Shown here: one piece after another, positions 9,123 to 63,723 of the stretch | Numbering within the stretch: position 1 is the stretch's first letter | How the letters are laid out: each line of letters opens with the position of its first letter | Assembly (NCBI GenBank): GCA_964355855.1 | Contig: CAYHFD010000001.1 | Span: 9,921-73,920 of the forward strand | Source: an uncultured Candidatus Saccharibacteria bacterium | Lineage (GTDB): Bacteria > Patescibacteriota > Minisyncoccia > Phycocordibacterales > XYD1-FULL-46-19 | DNA length: 64,000 bases | Reading direction: 5' to 3' | Notes under the pieces: model-generated | What the model was told of the DNA's origin: nothing | The model's database searches: none | The model's input: the letters and a program-made list of their open reading frames with translations, nothing else | Made by a program: the position numbers and the translations under genes

Positions 9123-9614
9123 CTATTTCAAATAACTATCAAACCAGACCGCGTGGCAGGTGTAGCCACCCGGGTTTTTCTGCAGATAATCTTGATGGTG
9201 GGCTTCCGCTGGGTAGAATTTAGTCAACGGCTCCAAAGTGGTCACCACCGGCCCCGACCAGCGACCAGACTTGTTGACGATATCAATAAATTTTTCGGCT
9301 TCACTTTTTTCTTCATCACTCCCATAAAATATCGCCGAGCGGTAGGAACTGCCTTTATCATTTCCCTGTTGATTTAAAGTGGTTGGATTATGCACCCGAA
9401 AAAAGAAGTCGAGTAAGTTTTTATACGAAGTCTGGGTCAGGTCATATTCTATCTCCACTGCTTCAGCGTGGCCGGTGTGGTTTTGATAGGTCGGATTGGC
9501 CACACTACCTCCGGTATAACCTACTTCAGTATTAATAACCCCTGGTTCTTTTCGAATCAGTTCCTCTAGGCCCCAAAAGCAACCACCCGCCAAAACTATT
9601 TTTTTATTATTCAT
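9123..9614 (-). CDS. msrA: peptide methionine sulfoxide reductase A
   Basis: IVLAGGCFWGLEE catalytic motif. Confidence 0.9.
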   Translation of the reverse strand: MNNKKIVLAGGCFWGLEELIRKEPGVINTEVGYTGGSVANPTYQNHTGHAEAVEIEYDLTQTSYKNLLDFFFRVHNPTTLNQQGNDKGSSYRSAIFYGSDEEKSEAEKFIDIVNKSGRWSGPVVTTLEPLTKFYPAEAHHQDYLQKNPGGYTCHAVWFDSYLK

Positions 9615-9638
9615 ATTATTTACCCATTTCCTTATTCT

Positions 9639-9662
9639 CCTATTCGCGCGAATTAGAGATAT
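9639..9662 (-). repeat. 24-bp motif copy 1 (CCTATTCGCGCGAATTAGAGATAT)
   Basis: Exact copy; supplies last codons and stop of msrB; 26 nt upstream of msrA ATG. Confidence 0.9.
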
Positions 9663-10038
9663 CTTTGACCGAGATATTCTTAGTCACACCCGCTATAAAT
9701 TTCAGCGAAATCGAGTTCACACAATGGCGGATATTTTTGGCGGTTAGATTTTCACCGGTAAACACGTGGCCGAGGTGACCACCACACTTGGCGCAGGTAA
9801 TCTCGGTCCGCCGGCCATCGGCATCAACACTTTTTATTACCGCTCCCGCAATTTCATCATCAAAACTGGGCCAGCCACAATGTGACTCAAATTTATCTTG
9901 CGAATTATAAAGTGGCGCTTCACACTGCCGGCACACATACACCCCCGTGGCTTTATTATTAACATATTCACCCGTAAAAGCCGGCTCAGTGCCTTTATCA
10001 ATGATGACGTGTTTTTCTTGGGAGGTGAGGGGGTGCAT
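9640..10038 (-). CDS. msrB: peptide methionine sulfoxide reductase B (with repeat-derived C-terminal tail)
   Basis: CxxC...CxxC zinc site and HLGHVF / RHCVNS motifs; last 8 codons (DISNSRE-stop) lie inside the 24-bp repeat. Confidence 0.9.
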
Positions 10039-13633: not shown

Positions 13634-13681
13634 CCAAGGACCGTCCTTGGAAAAATTTTGATGTGGTGTAATTTTGCTTGG
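13634..13681. repeat. left inverted repeat (IR-A) of ~5 kb island
   Basis: CCAAGGACCGTCCTTGGAAAAATTTTGATGTGGTGTAATTTTGCTTGG matches reverse complement of 18631-18678 with about 5 mismatches. Confidence 0.8.
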
Positions 13682-13835
13682 CGGGCTACTCGAGTTAAAT
13701 ACCCCTAAGGCAAGGTGCCACAAGGGTATTCTAGCACTAATCAGCCCTCCTTTTCGAGACCTCAGAGTCGGGACTATAATATTGTAAATCCGATACTTAA
13801 AAAGATTCCTCTTGATACGCCACCCCTTATTGCGA

Positions 13836-18542: not shown

Positions 18543-18633
18543 GGAAGGGTACCAAAGCGGTCATAATGGCACCGATTCGAAATCGGTTGAGGGCGTAAGT
18601 CCTACAAGGGTTCGAATCCCTTCCCTTCCGCCA
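18543..18633 (+). tRNA. tRNA-Ser (anticodon CGA), long variable arm, CCA encoded
   Basis: Acceptor GGAAGGG/CCCTTCC, anticodon stem ACCGA/TCGGT loop TTCGAAA, variable arm TGAGGGCGTAAGTCCTAC, T-arm AAGGG-TTCGAAT-CCCTT. Confidence 0.9.
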
Positions 18634-18678
18634 AACAAAATTACAACACACTAAAATTTTTCCAAGGACGGTCCTTGG
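18631..18678. repeat. right inverted repeat (IR-B) of ~5 kb island, begins at CCA of tRNA-Ser
   Basis: CCAAACAAAATTACAACACACTAAAATTTTTCCAAGGACGGTCCTTGG; reverse complement matches 13634-13681; similarity extends to CCGCCA of the tRNA 3' end. Confidence 0.8.
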
Positions 18679-25026: not shown

Positions 25027-25391
25027 TGCTTGGGGGCGGGTTCGAACCGCCGACCCTTCGCTCTTCCAGAGCGTTTGGACTATATCATCATCCGTTCTGC
25101 TAATAAGCAGAGTTAGGAGGCAGGCGCTTCCCCTCAACTACGCTCGGGGTAAACCCTAAGCTAATCAAGAGTACTCCCTTTCGGGATAGTCTCTACACCT
25201 TCCGAGCACCACTTTTGAATTCTAGAATATTCTAAAAACCAAAAGTGGTGCTCGGCTTGGCTCGGGATTGTCCAAAAAATTAATCTTGGGTGTCCCCCGA
25301 ATTCACCTACTTTTTCGATCCACTTTACAATAGAAAGGCCCGAAGTTTTTTAGGGTCCAGGCGAATGCTCTACCAACTGAGCTACCCAAGC
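25027..25391 (-). tRNA. tRNA-Phe (inferred anticodon GAA) interrupted by a ~282-nt group-I-like intron in the anticodon loop
   Basis: 5' exon 25359-25391: GCTTGGGTAGCTCAGTTGGTAGAGCATTCGCCT; 3' exon 25027-25076: GAAGAGCGAAGGGTCGGCGGTTCGAACCCGCCCCCAAGCA; halves form perfect acceptor (GCTTGGG/CCCAAGC), anticodon (TTCGC/GCGAA) and T stems. Confidence 0.75.
25077..25358 (-). ncRNA. group I intron (self-splicing ribozyme candidate) within tRNA-Phe
   Basis: 5' exon ends in U, intron ends in G; contains GAGACTATCCCGAAAGGGAGTACTC (P7/GAAA-tetraloop-like) and GATGATATAGTCC (P7') reminiscent of the Tetrahymena/cyanobacterial cores. Confidence 0.65.
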
Positions 25392-28408: not shown

Positions 28409-28410
28409 AG

Positions 28411-28481
28411 TGCGGAATACGAGAATCGAACTCGTGTCTATTGCTTGGGAAGCAACCATTTTGCCACTAAACTAATTCCGC
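28411..28481 (-). tRNA. tRNA-Gly (anticodon CCC)
   Basis: GCGGAATTAGTTTAGTGGCAAAATGGTTGCTTCCCAAGCAATAGACACGAGTTCGATTCTCGTATTCCGCA. Confidence 0.85.
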
Positions 28482-28602
28482 AGAAATGATGCCTAACTTG
28501 ATGTGTGGGTGAACTATATCCGCAAAATTACTACTGGATTTTCATAAATTATACTCGCATGACTCGTTAATTTATGGAAGAAGCAACCATTTTGCCACTA
28601 AA

Positions 28603-28910
28603 CCCACACACTAACTTTTGTTTTGGAAAAGTTCTAAAGTTTTACCAATACGCTTGAGAAGCTGATTACGCGCTTGCCCCCTTAATTTTAAACTACTCTC
28701 CCTGTTGCGCGCCTCCTCCTCAATCGAATAAGCTTCATAATACAGTAGTTTAAACGGGCGTCTAGATTTGGTTGAACGAACTTTTCCTAAATTATGTTCT
28801 TCTAGACGTTTCTTTAAATCATTGGTTGAGCCAACATAAAGATCATGGTCTTTTAAACTTCCTAAAATATACAAGAAGAACATAATTTGAAACAAAAGTT
28901 AGTGTGTGGG
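28603..28910 (-). mobile_element. miniature GIY-YIG cassette with perfect 20-bp terminal inverted repeats and 5-bp TAAAC target duplication, inserted in a duplicated tRNA-Gly 5' fragment
   Basis: CCCACACACTAACTTTTGTT at 28603-28622; exact reverse complement at 28891-28910; flanks GAAGAAGCAACCATTTTGCCACTAAAC and TAAACTAATTCCGCA copy the tRNA-Gly 5' region (28449-28481). Confidence 0.7.
28611..28883 (-). CDS. GIY-YIG nuclease family protein (COG2827-like, ~90 aa)
   Basis: YILGSLKDHDLYVGSTNDLKKRLEEHN = GIY..YVG...R..EH catalytic motif; ATG at 28883 (TTG at 28895 alternative). Confidence 0.8.
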   Translation of the reverse strand: MFFLYILGSLKDHDLYVGSTNDLKKRLEEHNLGKVRSTKSRRPFKLLYYEAYSIEEEARNRESSLKLRGQARNQLLKRIGKTLELFQNKS

Positions 28911-28934
28911 TAAACTAATTCCGCAATAAAAATT

Positions 28935-54520: not shown

Positions 54521-54548
54521 TTAATATTTTGTGCTAAAACTTGGATAA

Positions 54549-55334
54549 CTAACCTTGGTCATCGTCATCATCGTCATCATCGTCATCATCGTCATCATCG
54601 TCATCATCGTCATCATCGTTTAAATTGTCGCCTTCGTCATCGCTTTCGCCATCTTGATCTTCTTGTTCATCATCCCTATCCTCATTGTCTAAGTTATCCT
54701 CGTCATTAATTAAATCCTGACTAGTTTTCTTGTCCTTTATTTTTATTTTAACTTCTTCTTTGCCATTGTTAAATTTAATTTCAATTTCAATACGAGAGGA
54801 CAATAAATCCGTCGGCACTCGTCCAGTCACCCCCGCCACTTCTAGTATCTCATTTATCCGCGCCAAAGTTTGAGGACCAACTACTCCCACCTGTTCTATT
54901 CTTACTTTATTTTGAAAACGTTTAACAGCTTGTTCGGTTAGTGGCCCAAAAAAACCAGTAATTACTCCTTCTGGGTATAAAGCTGGATCAGTCGCTAAAA
55001 TAGTTTGCAATTCTTTGACATCATCTCCCGACATACCAATTTTTAAACTTCTTTTTAACTTAAGCTGGGCTAATTCCGCATTTAAGGATTGATTAACCGT
55101 CTCAGAAACAACTAATTGTGCTTGTAATTTTTTAATTTGAGCCAATAATGATGCGATTTTTTCCTCAAAAGAGCCCAATGCACTGTTTGCAGTAGAGGAC
55201 GTGGTTGAGGTTGTACTTGAAACAACCGATTCATTAGTACTAGTTGCCGTGCTGGTTGCCGTCTGAGCAAGCCCCTCACTTAAGGTAAAAAAGAAACCAA
55301 AAAGCACCAAGACTACATATCCGATTTTTCTCAT
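54549..55334 (-). CDS. secreted peptidoglycan-binding-domain protein with C-terminal poly-Asp tail
   Basis: Signal peptide, Ser/Thr-rich linker, coiled coil, PG_binding_1-like MSGDDVKELQTILATDPALYPEGVITGFFGPLTEQAVKRFQ, then ~25 consecutive Asp. Confidence 0.7.
   Translation of the reverse strand: MRKIGYVVLVLFGFFFTLSEGLAQTATSTATSTNESVVSSTTSTTSSTANSALGSFEEKIASLLAQIKKLQAQLVVSETVNQSLNAELAQLKLKRSLKIGMSGDDVKELQTILATDPALYPEGVITGFFGPLTEQAVKRFQNKVRIEQVGVVGPQTLARINEILEVAGVTGRVPTDLLSSRIEIEIKFNNGKEEVKIKIKDKKTSQDLINDEDNLDNEDRDDEQEDQDGESDDEGDNLNDDDDDDDDDDDDDDDDDDDDQG
54558..54618. repeat. (GTCATCATC)n microsatellite encoding the poly-Asp tail
   Basis: Seven near-perfect 9-bp units; direct read. Confidence 0.9.
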
Positions 55335-59143: not shown

Positions 59144-59971
59144 TTATCTTAAACCTTCACACACTACCCCATCACTATCACTATCTAATTTGTGGGGGTC
59201 GGCCGTCGGGCCACCGCAAGCAATAAAAACTGATTGAGCTTCAGCTTGAGTGGTAAAATTGGTGCAATTGTAAATATTGCGGTCACAAATATAGTTTTCC
59301 CCGACCCCCGCCACGCTGGCCGTGGCGGGGGTGTCTTTTTCTATTTTTTTATCCTCACACACCCCATCGGCCCATAAACCCTTTTTTCCCTCGCGTGCTT
59401 GTTTTTCCGCCAACTTAAACTCGGTCTGGTATTTATAGGGTAAATTGTAGGTGTACTCGTAAGCAAATCCTTGGCTAATCATCAGCTTATTAAAATTGGT
59501 CCCGTCGGCTAGAAAAACATAGCGCAACAGCCGGTTATATTTATCCCGCTCACCATGGCTTGGGTCTGCTTCCAGACGCACCGTCCGACCAGCCAAAACC
59601 GCTTTGGCTTTACTGGAAGCCTCTTTACCAAAACATTCTACCGCCTTACGCGGGTCCACGGTCTCTGGTGTATTTATACCAATTAGACGCAAAGTTTCTG
59701 CTTTGCCATTTATATTCACCACCAGCGTGTCCCCATCAATCACTTTCACTACTTGGTAAGCGTCGCCAGTCACGGCCACCGGCAGTAAATTTCCGGCGGA
59801 TGATGTCGCCCGACTATTTGATATTTTTTCCGTTGAAGTCGATCCACTTATTCCCGTCTCCAATTGGGTTATCTCTTCTCTAGGTCCTGTTCCCCATCCA
59901 CTCAACAAAATAAAACCGGCCGCGAGTAATATCACGAGCCCCAGACCAGTAGCCATTAATTTAGAAAACAT
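59144..59971 (-). CDS. secreted thermonuclease (SNase) with C-terminal excalibur Ca-binding domain
   Basis: Signal peptide; VIDGDTLVV, RLIGINTPE, KYNRLLRYVF SNase blocks; DSDSDGVVCE excalibur motif. Confidence 0.8.
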   Translation of the reverse strand: MFSKLMATGLGLVILLAAGFILLSGWGTGPREEITQLETGISGSTSTEKISNSRATSSAGNLLPVAVTGDAYQVVKVIDGDTLVVNINGKAETLRLIGINTPETVDPRKAVECFGKEASSKAKAVLAGRTVRLEADPSHGERDKYNRLLRYVFLADGTNFNKLMISQGFAYEYTYNLPYKYQTEFKLAEKQAREGKKGLWADGVCEDKKIEKDTPATASVAGVGENYICDRNIYNCTNFTTQAEAQSVFIACGGPTADPHKLDSDSDGVVCEGLR

Positions 59972-60093
59972 TTCCCCAGTCTAACATCTCTTCCCTTCGG
60001 CTATAAATCAACTATGACTAAATCTACTTAAATAATAAGGCCCGGGGTTAAAGACCCGGGCCGGTTTTTACTACTTCACACAGTATAGTAAGA

Positions 60094-60933
60094 CTAAAGA
60101 ACAGAAACCGGTAGATGCAAGATAGCGGCCCCAGTTTCCAAATACCAACCCAAGTTGGTCGTCGTGTGACTAGAGACCAGATACCCATGGCGCGCCACAT
60201 ATTCACCCATGACTAGATACTGGGCTGAAGTCCGCGCCGAGCGTTCCATCAGTTCACTAAAAGAAGCCTGGGGACAAATTCGCTCATACATCCGTAAGCG
60301 CGCTACGGTCTCGCCGACTATCCGGCTGAAATATTGCCCGTCGCTCATCAGCTTAGCCGTAAGCTGCTCTTCGGTCTCGACTAAATTCGGTATCTCGTCA
60401 GTCATCAAGCGCACTTGCCAGCCCCGACTCGCTACTTTAGCCCTGGTCGCCGCCACTGAAGCTTCAACACAAGCCAGCAGTTCCTCCCGACTACGACCGA
60501 CGGCTCGGCTAAGCACTGGGTCATCGGCCTCCTGGTTAGGCATCAGGATTCGCACTTCCGCTTGGGGTAAAACCCTGGTCAGCCGCTCTAGGAATCTAAT
60601 CTGACGTTCGCCCAAGAGTGACACCCCGGTCCCCACCGAGCGAAAGTCATAGGCCCCGTCCCGGTGGCTATAATCCAGGCAAGATGGGGCAATAATCACC
60701 GGCTGTTCATTGGTTCTGGCAATCACCAGCCCAATGCGATCACCCATCACTTTGGTTCGGGAAGCATAGCCGCACACACCGATTGTTCGGCACACCCGCC
60801 GCACTTTTTCCATTCTCAACCGCTTGTGTTGCTCTCCCCATAAGCCTGCCTCACCATTGAGGTACTTCCTCGTCCGTGGCAAGCGCAGGCGGGGTACTGC
60901 CATTTCTTCCATCATTTCCACCACTGTTTGCAT
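60094..60933 (-). CDS. hypothetical protein (high-GC, foreign-looking)
   Basis: AGGAG 8 nt before ATG at 60933 (longer ORF to 61098 probably non-coding); no recognised motif. Confidence 0.35.
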   Translation of the reverse strand: MQTVVEMMEEMAVPRLRLPRTRKYLNGEAGLWGEQHKRLRMEKVRRVCRTIGVCGYASRTKVMGDRIGLVIARTNEQPVIIAPSCLDYSHRDGAYDFRSVGTGVSLLGERQIRFLERLTRVLPQAEVRILMPNQEADDPVLSRAVGRSREELLACVEASVAATRAKVASRGWQVRLMTDEIPNLVETEEQLTAKLMSDGQYFSRIVGETVARLRMYERICPQASFSELMERSARTSAQYLVMGEYVARHGYLVSSHTTTNLGWYLETGAAILHLPVSVL

Positions 60934-61269
60934 TTCACATCTCCTGGTTGGTAAAGATCCACTCAACAAAAAACTCCTCGTCGCCAGGCAGGAAAAAACC
61001 TGCCCAGGGACGAGGAGTCTTGAAAAAAACCCAAGCTCGTGGTGCCACCCTAGTTTTGGAACCAAAAAAACACCGTGGAGGTGCTCTTTTAGTTCCACTC
61101 ATCGGCGCGTACATCCCAGAGGGACAGATACCGATTATCCCATGGTTACGGAGGAGTGCCGAGCTGTCACTTGCGCAACAGCCATCCTGCCCAAACGGGC
61201 GATCGCGGCCCAACCCTCGGCTTACAGCCGAGGACCACGATCAAGGATTTTGTCTCTTGTTGAAGTACT

Positions 61270-61300
61270 AAGCTTAGTCTACCAACGCTACCCCCGCTGT
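61270..61300 (-). promoter_or_regulatory. sigma70-like promoter (TTGACA-16-TAGACT) upstream of 60094-60933 gene
   Basis: Minus-strand TTGACAGCGGGGGTAGCGTTGGTAGACT. Confidence 0.4.
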
Positions 61301-61349
61301 CAACCACCACCTTTTCTTTTTCCCTTTTTATTTCTATTTTTTCTATTCC

Positions 61350-61373
61350 CCTATTCGCGCGAATTAGAGATAT
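61350..61373 (-). repeat. 24-bp motif copy 2
   Basis: Exact copy; supplies last codons and stop of ArsR-like gene. Confidence 0.9.
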
Positions 61374-61635
61374 GTTTAGAAACGTATTGAACAATAGGAT
61401 GACGATCCGGCGACAGCGAATACCACATTTCCAAACCCCGCTGCTTTTTTTCCACAATATCAGCCCCGTAAAGCACTGCCAAATGTTTAGAGGTGGCTTT
61501 GAAAGACAAGTTGATTTTTTCGGCCAACTCACTTACTGTCGCCTCTTTTTCTCGCCCTAAATATTTGATCAGCGCCAGCCGCCGCCCATTGGCCAGTGCT
61601 TTCAACACCCGCTCTAACTCCTTAATATTTTTCAT
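61351..61635 (-). CDS. ArsR/SmtB-family transcriptional regulator (C-terminus supplied by 24-bp repeat)
   Basis: RRLALIKYL...ATVSELAEKINLSFKATSKHLAVLYGADIV winged HTH; ends HISNSRE-stop inside repeat. Confidence 0.8.
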   Translation of the reverse strand: MKNIKELERVLKALANGRRLALIKYLGREKEATVSELAEKINLSFKATSKHLAVLYGADIVEKKQRGLEMWYSLSPDRHPIVQYVSKHISNSRE

Positions 61636-61657
61636 CTTCCCATTTTACCACCCTTGC

Positions 61658-61681
61658 CCTATTCGCGCGAATTAGAGATAT
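61658..61681 (-). repeat. 24-bp motif copy 3
   Basis: Exact copy; between racemase stop and ArsR-like ATG (about 25 nt upstream of ATG). Confidence 0.9.
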
Positions 61682-61692
61682 ATTCTACGCTT

Positions 61693-62397
61693 TTAGGTTT
61701 TATTTTCCAGAGCTAAAGCCAAGGCCTTGTCCACTATCACTTGATTAGAGTTTATTAATGGTACCGCTAAAGCCATGGCCCCGAGCGCCAGTGGCAACTC
61801 TGTACAACCAAGAATAATCACCTCGGCCCCGGCCTGCACCAAGCTAGCCACAATTTCTTGAATCAGCTGAGTATCGGCCCCATCATTTTTTCCAGCCATA
61901 ACTTTCAAAATAATCCCATCTAACTTAGCCTGTTCGGCCACGGTCACAACTAGAGGCTCGATACCGGCTTTCACCAGCTTGTCCGTATAAAGATTATACT
62001 TGGCACTACTGGCTGAGGTTAGGAGTCCCGCCCGAGTGTAGCCCCCAGTCTTCGCCATCTGCACTGTCTCATCGACAATACTCAAAATCGGAATATTGAG
62101 TCCGGCCTGCATTTCGTCTTGATAGATATGTACCGTATTGCAAGCGATCACAACAAAATCACACTTGGCCGATTCTAGTCTTTTGACCCCAGATACCAGT
62201 TGCCTCTTGACGGCTTCAGCCTCCACAATCCCCCGCTCGTCAAAACCCTCGAGCGGTAGATTGTAAATAATTATCGGCGGAAACTCATTGTCTTGCACCG
62301 CCCCATATTTATTATGAGCCAGATCGATAATTAGATTGTAGAAATAAGCACTTGCCTCCGGGCCCATACCACCCAAAATACCAATTGTTTTCTTCAT
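61693..62397 (-). CDS. aspartate/glutamate racemase family protein
   Basis: IGILGGMGPEAS, VIACNTVH, IILGCTELP two-Cys racemase motifs. Confidence 0.85.
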   Translation of the reverse strand: MKKTIGILGGMGPEASAYFYNLIIDLAHNKYGAVQDNEFPPIIIYNLPLEGFDERGIVEAEAVKRQLVSGVKRLESAKCDFVVIACNTVHIYQDEMQAGLNIPILSIVDETVQMAKTGGYTRAGLLTSASSAKYNLYTDKLVKAGIEPLVVTVAEQAKLDGIILKVMAGKNDGADTQLIQEIVASLVQAGAEVIILGCTELPLALGAMALAVPLINSNQVIVDKALALALENKT

Positions 62398-62602
62398 AAA
62401 TATTTTCTTAAACCAATAAAAAACGGCCCCCTTGAGGCCGCTTTAGAACATTTGTGACGAGTGGGACAAACAGGTTTACAAATACTCAAAACCGACCTCA
62501 AAGAGGCTCTCCCGACGACGGTTATTGGTATTTATAGACAGTAGTCTCTGCATATATTTATCCTAGCAATTAATCACAATAAGTCCAGTCCGTCTTACTT
62601 TT

Positions 62603-62905
62603 CTATACCCCACAGGCCTCTTCGACATAGGCCACCAGCTGGTCCTTGTCATCAATAATTTCCGGCGGTACCTCCAGATAATTTTTCAAAACTTGGTCCT
62701 GGCTTGGGGTAAACGGGCCCATCCCCACCGCCTGATATTTTTTAGCCGTCTCGGGATTAGTTTTTAAATATAAAACGCCTTCATTCACGATGCCAAAAAA
62801 GGTCTCACCCAAATACAAACCATAAGAAGAAAATATCTTCTTAATCCGGACCTCCCCCAATTCCCCCACCTGATCCGCCACATATTCTGCGAAGCTAGTA
62901 TCCAT
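62603..62905 (-). CDS. TfoX N-terminal-domain protein
   Basis: IKKIFSSYGLYLGETFFGIVNEGVLYLKT and VPPEIIDDKDQLVAYVEEA match TfoX_N pattern. Confidence 0.65.
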   Translation of the reverse strand: MDTSFAEYVADQVGELGEVRIKKIFSSYGLYLGETFFGIVNEGVLYLKTNPETAKKYQAVGMGPFTPSQDQVLKNYLEVPPEIIDDKDQLVAYVEEACGV

Positions 62906-62976
62906 GTTTTTATTTTACCCCAGCTTAGCCCTTATCTAAAACCCCACAAAAATATTTTCACTATTAGCTTTATTCT

Positions 62977-63000
62977 CCTATTCGCGCGAATTAGAGATAT
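62977..63000 (-). repeat. 24-bp motif copy 4
   Basis: Exact copy with same 7-nt extension as copy 1; ~70 nt upstream of TfoX_N gene ATG. Confidence 0.9.
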
Positions 63001-63045
63001 GGTCTGCACTTTTAGACAAGTCAAAATTAGTGTAGGCTAGATTAT

Positions 63046-63723
63046 ATGCAAGCCATTATTTTAGCTGCCGGTAGTCACGAACATAGCCAGTCGCGAGAAC
63101 CCATAAAGTGTCTCTTAAAAGTCGGTCGAGAACCCCTACTTTGTCACCTCACCCGTGAATTGCCCCCAGAAATATCGGAAATAATTATTGTCGTTGGCCG
63201 GCAAAAAAACCAAGTTAAAGAAATAGCTGGTCGCACCTTGGCTGGTCGGACTGTGCGTTATGTTACCCAAAACGAGCAACTGGGTACTGGCCACGCCCTT
63301 TCTTTGTGCCGACCAATTATTCACACCGAACGTTTTTTGGTCTTGATGGGTGACAACCTTTATTTAAAAAGTGATATCAAGGCTTGTCTTAAACACCCAC
63401 GGGCTATTCTCACTAAAAAAATTGACGCGCCCGAACGCTACGGCCTAGTGAGCGAATCTGGTCACTTGTTAGTGGCGGTCACCGAAAAACCCAAAAACCC
63501 AAACGGGGCTTTGATCAACTGTGGTCTTTATGTTCTTGATCATAAGATTTTTGACATACCTTTAGCTAAAATCGGTGAAGACGAATATGGCCTACCTCAA
63601 CAAGTGGCCAATCTTTCCGCTATTTATCCTGTCGCCATTGAACAGGCCCAGTTTTGGCTTCCGGTTAGCACCATCGAAGATTTAAAACAAGCCGACAAAT
63701 ACCTTCGCCGGATGTATTCTTAA
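63046..63723 (+). CDS. sugar-phosphate nucleotidyltransferase (NTP_transferase fold)
   Basis: MQAIILAAGSHEH...PIKCLLKV, GTGHAL, MGDNLY blocks. Confidence 0.7.
   Translation: MQAIILAAGSHEHSQSREPIKCLLKVGREPLLCHLTRELPPEISEIIIVVGRQKNQVKEIAGRTLAGRTVRYVTQNEQLGTGHALSLCRPIIHTERFLVLMGDNLYLKSDIKACLKHPRAILTKKIDAPERYGLVSESGHLLVAVTEKPKNPNGALINCGLYVLDHKIFDIPLAKIGEDEYGLPQQVANLSAIYPVAIEQAQFWLPVSTIEDLKQADKYLRRMYS

Follow-up and report, generated by a model that had tools for sequence, protein, structure and literature searches.

The window analysed here, a 64-kb stretch of the genome of an uncultured Candidatus Saccharibacteria bacterium (contig CAYHFD010000001.1, positions 9,921 to 73,920), carries four copies of a short palindromic repeat, one of which lies just upstream of a small gene of the ArsR/SmtB family and another on its stop codon. 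A sequence-only reading of the window had proposed that the repeat is an operator bound by this neighbouring ArsR-like regulator, and comparative evidence now points in the same direction. We put the probability at about 0.65 that the repeat, a dyad of ~32 bp, is the operator of the adjacent 94-amino-acid (aa) protein. This reading is favoured because motif and regulator are coupled in two independent samples, because the recognition helix of the regulator is invariant, and because paralogues of the regulator are accompanied by palindromes of their own.

The repeat can be recognised as a 24-mer, CCTATTCGCGCGAATTAGAGATAT, with exact copies at 9639, 61350, 61658 and 62977, all on the plus strand, as the sequence-only reading had observed; no copies are expected in shuffles of the window, and no further ones were found in it at up to three mismatches. 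The 12-bp palindrome ATTCGCGCGAAT is confined to the same four copies in the window even when one mismatch is allowed (0.13 expected), while a looser pattern, ATTC-N4-GAAT, has one additional, unrelated match there. The coordinates bear out the observation that copies 1 and 4 are identical over 31 bp (9632-9662 = 62970-63000). Three of the four copies fall within 1.7 kb around the regulator gene, referred to below as arsR. The neighbouring genes lie almost all on the minus strand, and the motif read in that orientation is ATATCTCTAATTCGCGCGAATAGG. The four sites, with their sequences in gene orientation and distances in nucleotides (nt), and the regulator gene are as follows.

Copy 1, 9632..9663, minus strand: gATATCTCTAATTCGCGCGAATAGGAGAATAA; covers the last seven codons and the stop codon of msrB
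Copy 2, 61343..61374, minus strand: ATATCTCTAATTCGCGCGAATAGGGGAATAG; provides the ISNSRE-stop of arsR
Copy 3, 61651..61682, minus strand: ATATCTCTAATTCGCGCGAATAGGGCAAGGG; begins 12 nt past the stop codon of an Asp/Glu racemase gene
Copy 4, 62970..63001, minus strand: the same as copy 1 over 31 bp; lies in the divergent region between tfoX (minus strand) and an NTP-transferase gene (plus strand)
arsR-like gene, 61351..61635, minus strand: 94-aa ArsR/SmtB-family winged-helix protein, the proposed binder; no Cys

A motif-selected sample was obtained by scanning one genome per bacterial or archaeal species for the 20-mer TATTCGCGCGAATTAGAGAT. The exact 20-mer was found in at least 119 contig stretches from species-representative genomes, nearly all of them metagenome-assembled genomes of Patescibacteria, also known as the Candidate Phyla Radiation (CPR). 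The lineages among the matches listed include Saccharibacteria, Paceibacterota, Nomura-, Zambryski-, Harrison-, Moran-, Kerfeld-, Lipton-, Sungii-, Giovannoni-, Staskawicz- and Doudnabacteria, together with Tagabacteria. When 120 motif-selected sequences were searched with the window ArsR protein (tblastn), 44 were found to encode a homologue at 45-66% identity, and in 40 the motif directly abuts the homologue on the same strand, upstream 25 times and at or on the 3' end 24 times. A second sample was drawn by protein alone to avoid circularity, in a metagenome scan with an alignment of 31 homologues; at least 514 stretches encoding relatives were present among the 600 listed, and 80 loci were kept. 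In this protein-selected sample, the ATTC-N4-GAAT core was found no more than 170 nt upstream of the regulator gene in 76 of the 77 evaluable loci, at the 3' end of the gene in 67 of 76, and at both ends in 64 of 72. The resulting layout, shared by almost every homologue in Patescibacteria, brackets the gene, with one copy 26-105 nt before the regulator ATG and the other on or just after its stop codon. One locus from Hainich groundwater (L120) encodes an ArsR protein 100% identical to that of the window. Motif-bearing contigs labelled as Nanoarchaeota (L042, L082) or Gammaproteobacteria (L027, L061, L073, L088, L090) were also seen; because genes on those contigs resemble CPR ones, such as a MnmA fragment on L042, we suspect that these labels reflect mis-binning or mislabelling rather than spread across domains.

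The same loci hold paralogues of the regulator (28-44% identity to the query), each of which is bracketed, upstream and at its 3' end, by its own palindrome in the same architecture. This palindrome is ACATTCCAACATTCT-NN-AGAATGTTGGAATGT in three loci (L199, L013 and L108), CATTGAACAATTC-NATA-GAATTGTTCAATG in another (L178) and ATAGGCTAATTCG-TA-CGAATTAGCCTAT in a further one (L018). Such paralogue-specific palindromes are what cognate protein-DNA pairs would be expected to look like, and they are not easily accounted for by a palindrome that has nothing to do with the protein. The mutual information between columns of the ArsR alignment and the bases of the site's arms was dominated by high-entropy columns. 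Paralogue palindromes were also seen on their own (L034, L064, L094, L096), sometimes adjoining the main motif. The overall picture suggests several parallel regulator-operator systems in CPR genomes.

The window protein scores above the curated cutoffs of its family, matching Pfam PF01022 (HTH_5) with 38.6 bits against a cutoff of 22 (E=9.6e-10) and NCBIfam NF033788 with 69.9 bits against a cutoff of 55. Its closest relatives of known structure are Lmo1102 together with HlyU, NolR, CzrA and SmtB (E=2e-6 to 6e-4 for these four). The recognition-helix segment LSFKATSKHL shows little or no variation among the 31 homologues. The metal or metalloid sites known from the family (Cys in alpha3 or alpha3N, His, Asp or Glu in alpha5) were not found in this alignment, where the sole invariant His, H51, lies in the recognition helix and no other column of conserved Cys or His is present; the window protein itself has no Cys. 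Because the family is without a conserved set of Cys, His, Asp or Glu ligands, the regulator is unlikely to be a classical metal or thiol sensor, and the metal regulon offered as one explanation in the sequence-only reading loses its footing. A single-sequence AlphaFold model of the regulator was all-helical with low confidence (predicted local distance difference test score, pLDDT, 64.5), and was not used.

The conserved element proved longer than the 24-bp unit first described, which stands as its core, the full unit being 29-32 bp. In 135 sites from the motif-selected loci, the nine positions past the 20-mer read RGMGAATAR and are 58-96% conserved; these positions lie outside the search query, and so were not selected by the scan. 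The flanks beyond them hold no information. The canonical element of ~29-32 nt, (tcta)ATCTCTAATTCGCGCGAATAGGCGAATAG, can be written as a composite dyad, (CTA)TCTCTAATTCG-NN-CGAATAGGNGAATAG, in which four ATTC/GAAT tetramers follow one another at 8-bp steps. A less biased set of 146 distinct main-type sites, in which ATTCG-NN-CGAAT is invariant by selection, has C8 and T9 at more than 90% and yields the full pattern (C)TATTC-TCTA-ATTC-GNNC-GAAT-NNNN-GAATAG, with the two central bases free. A subset of sites are perfect 32-nt palindromes whose arms vary by genome (for example TAGGCTAATTCG..CGAATTAGCCTA, ACCCCTTATTCG..CGAATAAGGGGT and GGAACTATTCG..CGAATAGTTCC). The window has the canonical, asymmetric form, in which the right arm repeats GAATAG instead of complementing the left one, and the outer right subsite of copy 3 is degenerate. 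A frequent ‘CAT’ before the motif was considered as a sign of divergent start codons and turned out to be mostly a His codon or a weak left flank.

Upstream of arsR, most genomes have a -10-like hexamer 13-35 nt past the site and 6-9 nt before the ATG, often in TG-extended form (for example TGATACAAT, TGCTATAAT and GGTATAAT). With the -10 so close to the ATG, a leaderless arsR mRNA is predicted, and the site would fall on the -35 or immediately upstream of it. Within the window, 23 nt separate the 24-mer of copy 3 from the arsR ATG, and the copy overlies the -35 region that goes with a TAAAAT -10 ending 6 nt before this ATG. Only 9% of the genes in related loci have a Shine-Dalgarno-like motif, and 27-37% have a -10-like hexamer in leaderless position. 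For other genes, the ATG follows the 20-mer by 7 to >100 nt, with a mode of 15-19 nt.

If the dyad is indeed the operator, the regulator would be expected to bind it as a dimer, or as two dimers (there being four subsites). By binding to the upstream site, on or just upstream of its own -35, the protein would regulate its own gene, most likely as a repressor, which is the usual mode in the family. The stop-codon copy could cooperate with the upstream copy by looping the ~300-bp gene between them, and/or could control the next transcription unit. Putative targets in the window would then be msrA (copy 1), tfoX and possibly the divergent NTP-transferase gene (copy 4), and the unit headed by a T-box-like leader (copy 2). 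The features concerned are as follows.

msrB (SelR), 9640..10038, minus strand: 3' end enters copy 1; Pfam assignment
msrA (PMSR), 9123..9614, minus strand: first gene downstream of copy 1; Pfam assignment
TfoX_N-domain gene (tfoX), 62603..62905, minus strand: downstream of copy 4; Pfam assignment
NTP-transferase gene, 63046..63723, plus strand: divergent from copy 4 and a possible second target of it
T-box-like leader, 61003..61253, minus strand: heads the transcription unit downstream of copy 2; promoter-like site at 61303-61276

Copy 1 ends 17 nt before the msrA ATG (9614), and its 24-mer 25 nt before; the site is also present at the msrB/msrA junction of a related genome (L070). Between copy 4 and the tfoX ATG lie 72 nt, and the predicted tfoX promoter has its -35 ~30 nt downstream of the copy; a TAAAAT -10 ending 6 nt before the ATG (region 62905-62940, minus strand) predicts a leaderless tfoX mRNA, as for arsR. 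The region around copy 4 is divergent, the ATG of the plus-strand NTP-transferase gene being 46 nt away. Copy 2 is followed after ~47 nt by the -35 of a promoter-like site (TTGACA-16-TAGACT) in front of the T-box-like leader, and the first credible ATG of a GC-rich open reading frame (ORF) is 417 nt away. The spacing of 25-70 nt 5' of start codons that had been ascribed to all four copies consequently fails for copy 2 and is slightly exceeded at tfoX. The T-box-like leader has a canonical AAACUAGGGUGGCACCACGAG box and a terminator hairpin with a U-run, and matches Rfam RF00230 with 28 bits (E=0.0013), under the gathering score of 93. The ORF that follows it (~60094-60933, minus strand; 279 aa, 53% GC) would be odd cargo for a T-box, and has no Pfam or NCBIfam family.

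The placement of sites against the ends of genes accounts for an oddity that had been noticed in the window, namely the identical ISNSRE-stop ends of MsrB and the ArsR-like protein. Both ORFs terminate inside the motif, in the frame ATC TCT AAT TCG CGC GAA TAG, and share this tail because the TAG or TAA of the site acts as the stop codon. This is one case of a widespread arrangement and is not specific to the genome: in 23 protein-selected loci, regulator ORFs that end inside the site have NSLE, NSIE, NSRE or NSFE tails, in which one residue (NSxE) varies because the two central bases of the site vary, while other regulator ORFs end in ..SLL or ..SIL, stopping at the TAA of CTCTAA. We propose that ISNSRE and ISNSLE tails are a by-product of a site packed tightly against the upstream ORF. 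In MsrB, the Pfam SelR domain spans residues 4-115 of 132, and the tail past the domain is 17 aa long; the suggestion that insertion of a repeat had rewired the 3' end of msrB is not supported, since three of four in-gene copies compared with orthologues that lack the motif were found to entail no change in length.

Contexts were assigned to 139 exact sites from greedy ORF calls, which are approximate and sometimes mislabel small genes, such as arsR in the window. About 70 of the 139 sites lie between co-directional genes, usually a few nt from the upstream stop; 13 lie in divergent regions and ~20 inside ORFs. A recurrent context, seen in six genomes (L006, L014, L033, L071, L072 and L119; also L004), is dnaJ followed by the site and then by a gene for a ~570-aa zinc-ribbon protein. 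This protein has the N-terminus MKSEIKNCQNCKKDF and several CxxC pairs, and no Pfam or NCBIfam family was found for it. Families among the neighbours include MPG, an AlkD-like DNA-alkylation repair enzyme, UvrC, NUDIX, Ham1, an RNase T/ExoX-like exonuclease, a PD-(D/E)XK nuclease, topoisomerase I and MsrA and, further, Mur ligases, Ddl, LD-carboxypeptidase, WecG, SpoU, IMPase and acylphosphatase. These families hint at a possible theme of repair and maintenance.

Copies beside or inside genes other than arsR remain identical while the surrounding DNA has diverged. Read in the sense frame, the site encodes the peptide (I/S)SLIRAN(K/R)(R/G)I, and its hosts in this orientation are MnmA (three genomes), a GT4 glycosyltransferase (two), TruB (two), TGT, an IscS-like class-V aminotransferase, DegT, a DHH protein and an HsdS subunit; antisense hosts are MiaA (two genomes) and a MiaB-like radical-SAM/TRAM protein. 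Compared with orthologues without the motif, MiaA, the IscS-like aminotransferase and the GT4 enzyme show no gap at the motif-coded segment, the motif peptide replacing a similar native segment (for example RLFARIRDGMI versus RLLERIQKGMV), and the DHH protein shows a 9-aa gap that coincides with the motif. Where orthologous in-gene copies exist, they are exact and at the same codon position, though the orthologues are otherwise ~60-80% identical. In addition, miaA is linked to the site in four genomes at three different positions, inside the gene, 9 nt after it and ~90 nt before it, always in antisense. The alignments argue for in-gene copies being sites maintained or created by selection, with turnover of binding sites, and not transposon insertions. 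tRNA-modification enzymes and the cysteine desulfurase make up six of the ten host families, a striking pattern that was spotted post hoc.

Several observations weigh against an operator. At least 12 copies have intact arms that are split by a GC-rich hairpin of 15-80 nt, and a dimer should not bind such a copy as one site. Positions relative to predicted promoters vary from overlap with the start codon to ~-100; ~8 well-supported sites are flanked by convergent genes, among them the 3' copy of arsR in L029, L046 and L109; the neighbouring genes are highly diverse and mostly single occurrences, with no coherent regulon function evident; and no recognisable sensor site is present in the 31 homologues of the regulator. 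Finally, the perfect 32-nt palindromes, and a complementarity of the arms that exceeds that of column shuffles, would also fit a hairpin. We read the symmetry mainly as that of a dyad operator, because the half-sites of a homodimer are expected to change together. As to the GC-rich hairpins, GCCTGCCGGCAGGC and CCTGCCCGCC-N3-4-GGCGGG recur in AT-rich CPR loci, alone or at the centre of the motif (L003, L009, L032, L101, L116 and L157; also L081, L091, L095, L097, L147 and L193), and they may represent a separate miniature element or a terminator that lands in the CGCG centre.

A functional hairpin, to which the link with ArsR would be secondary, could act in RNA, as an intercistronic or 3'-end stabiliser, a processing site or a mask of AGGAG, or in single-stranded DNA or as a cruciform; we consider this unlikely. 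It would explain why apical insertions preserve both arms and lengthen the stem with GC-rich hairpins, why the outer arms differ among genomes yet are often self-complementary, by up to 36 nt, and why most copies stand exactly at stops or just before starts, co-oriented with the genes. In a 14-pair model of the 146 sites, 72.4% of cells are paired, against 67.8 +/- 0.5% after shuffling (0/500), and the covariation score is 0.183 against 0.121 in shuffles, with all slid controls beaten; G-U exceeds A-C in the sense orientation (168 versus 88), with pair 9/24 being U-G in 77 cases and A-C in three. However, the same model leaves 28% of cells unpaired, including pairs 2-4 and 10 in more than half of sites, the typical site forms only ~5 of the 10 outer pairs, and the canonical form is weak at -7 to -10 kcal/mol. 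Self-pairing is only marginally above cross-pairing between the arms of the two sites at the same arsR (27 versus 14 loci, p=0.014). Furthermore, the sequence of the inner stem is itself invariant, not merely its pairing, and the copies upstream of arsR precede the predicted -10 and hence lie outside the arsR mRNA; those at miaA are antisense to the gene. Rfam 15 gave no match over any copy at the gathering threshold in the whole window, nor any with E<=1 in 59900-63100, which holds three of the copies. A hairpin also gives no reason for paralogue-specific palindromes.

We regard a mobile or recombinogenic palindrome as somewhat more improbable again. The repeat would then be a REP/MITE-like pair of abutted terminal inverted repeats (repetitive extragenic palindrome or miniature inverted-repeat transposable element), as the sequence-only reading had entertained, or a site-specific recombination site, with motif-arsR-motif as a cassette and solo copies as its footprints. 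Its near-identical sequence in very distant lineages would fit, as would the ~370-bp motif-arsR-motif block, which aligns between genomes as a discrete unit with unrelated flanks, a gene indel directly at the site (L015 versus L069), the occurrence of in-ORF copies in both orientations, the extra 9 aa of the DHH protein and the resemblance of split copies to inverted repeats with an internal segment. Against this, the three in-gene copies without length change also lack a target duplication, orthologous in-gene copies are ancient and conserved and not polymorphic, and copy number is low, with four in 64 kb and no degenerate relics, unlike REPs, which are species-specific and number in the hundreds. 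No transposase, RAYT (REP-associated tyrosine transposase) or integrase family appears among the neighbours in Pfam summaries of 8-kb neighbourhoods, and a 17-mer of the motif had no matches in viral contigs. The least probable of the alternatives, and in our view a very unlikely one, is a core promoter or translation-initiation module for leaderless genes, in which the right GAATAGT would be -10-like and AGGAG or AGGCG a weak Shine-Dalgarno sequence. The peak of start codons 15-19 nt past the 20-mer corresponds to AATAGT, 6 nt and ATG, the rarity of Shine-Dalgarno-like motifs relative to leaderless-position hexamers is in keeping with it, and in one locus (L081) the right arm, GAATAGGAGAATA, stands by itself immediately before a start codon. 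Yet there is no conserved -35 or TG extension and the flanks are uninformative, the distance to the ATG ranges from 7 to >100 nt, the -10 signature is not enriched downstream of the motif (0.24 versus 0.27 in the background), arsR has a separate and better -10 downstream of the site, and copies between convergent genes or inside genes do not fit. Other candidates were set aside: a DNA uptake sequence, for which the copy number is too low; a parS-like site, the linkage being to an ArsR-type gene and not to ParB; a restriction site; an integron attC site, which would measure 55-140 nt with R and L boxes (GTTRRRY), against an element of 29-32 nt with no conserved GTTRRRY after it and no integrase among the neighbours; and REP elements or bacterial interspersed mosaic elements (BIMEs) with a Y1 (RAYT) transposase, the repeat-flanked gene here being an ArsR-like regulator and ~20 of the 139 exact sites lying inside ORFs.

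An operator read by the ArsR-type protein could be part of something broader. A minimal, sensor-less regulator of this type and its four-subsite operator might constitute a Patescibacteria-specific, radiation-wide global stress or maintenance regulon, akin to SOS, with sites kept by selection within tRNA-modification genes (mnmA, truB, tgt, miaA, miaB-like and cysteine desulfurase) and before tfoX and genes for repair and house-cleaning (MPG, AlkD-like, UvrC, NUDIX, Ham1, ExoX and MsrA/B), while the regulator's own gene is enclosed and possibly looped; we put this forward tentatively, as a possibility that is on balance doubtful. Patescibacteria are for the most part uncultured and encode few transcription factors, and next to nothing is known of how they regulate their genes. 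A pair of regulator and operator recognisable from sequence in hundreds of genomes would offer a predicted list of targets for each of them, and it accounts for a recurring oddity of annotation, in that the ISNSRE and ISNSLE tails belong to ORFs ending inside the site. Should the copies within genes prove to be genuine binding sites, they would show clearly that a long regulatory site can be kept constant in conserved coding sequence. Full-text literature searches found no description of the motif or of such a regulon, and the Patescibacteria-wide pair appears to be undescribed.

Other features of the window were also recorded. A match to group I introns (RF00028, 54 bits) at 25058-25361 on the minus strand does not fall in any rRNA or tRNA gene that was detected. 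Two arms 4.9 kb apart (13634-13684 and 18628-18678) form a 51-nt inverted repeat with 92% complementarity; the second arm abuts the 3' end of a tRNA-Ser gene (18543-18633), and the pair may delimit a mobile element or an invertible segment. Part of a tRNA-Gly gene (28410-28481) is duplicated as an exact 24-nt direct repeat (28449-28472 and 28580-28603) beside a perfect 22-nt inverted repeat (28602-28623 and 28890-28911), and the whole looks like an integration scar. Finally, a 9-nt periodic TCATCGTCA repeat occupies 54541-54705, where the minus strand would encode an Asp-rich low-complexity stretch.

Among known systems, REP/BIME sequences and the Rickettsia palindromic elements resemble the repeat in being short imperfect palindromes at gene ends, those of Rickettsia also lying in frame within genes. 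They are, however, species-specific and high in copy number, they add length and, in the case of REP, they are associated with a Y1 transposase, none of which was found here. CIRCE, the controlling inverted repeat of chaperone expression recognised by HrcA, offers a parallel as an inverted-repeat operator that is near-identical across distant lineages and precedes the operon of its regulator and a few other genes; roles in DNA as well as in mRNA have been discussed for it. It differs in the protein family that binds it, in its 9-bp spacer and in its small, coherent heat-shock regulon, whereas the neighbours here are heterogeneous and copies occur inside ORFs. The best matches to the regulator among solved structures are members of the ArsR family that do not sense metals (HlyU, NolR, BigR, PagR and SdpR; E ~1e-6 to 1e-5), which likewise have no classical metal site and some of which control dispersed genes; sensors of the BigR type use a pair of Cys residues that the regulator here lacks. 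We know of no member of this group with an operator-bracketed gene, nor of one with a site conserved at this length across phylum-level lineages. With SmtB, CzrA, CadC and ArsR, the regulator shares its family (Pfam, NCBIfam and PDB), its small winged-helix fold and a dyad before its own gene that implies autoregulation. The 12-2-12 operators of the ArsR/SmtB family are reported to hold two dimers, and the long site described here could do likewise. In contrast to these classical systems, the regulator has no metal ligands, and its putative operator, ~32 bp long, combines four tetramers into a dyad with an invariant ATTCG-NN-CGAAT, recurs on the stop codon of the regulator, and is also found beside and inside unrelated housekeeping genes. 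The system is thus set apart by near-invariance across an entire radiation, by a regulator gene bracketed by copies of the site, and by sites held within coding sequence.

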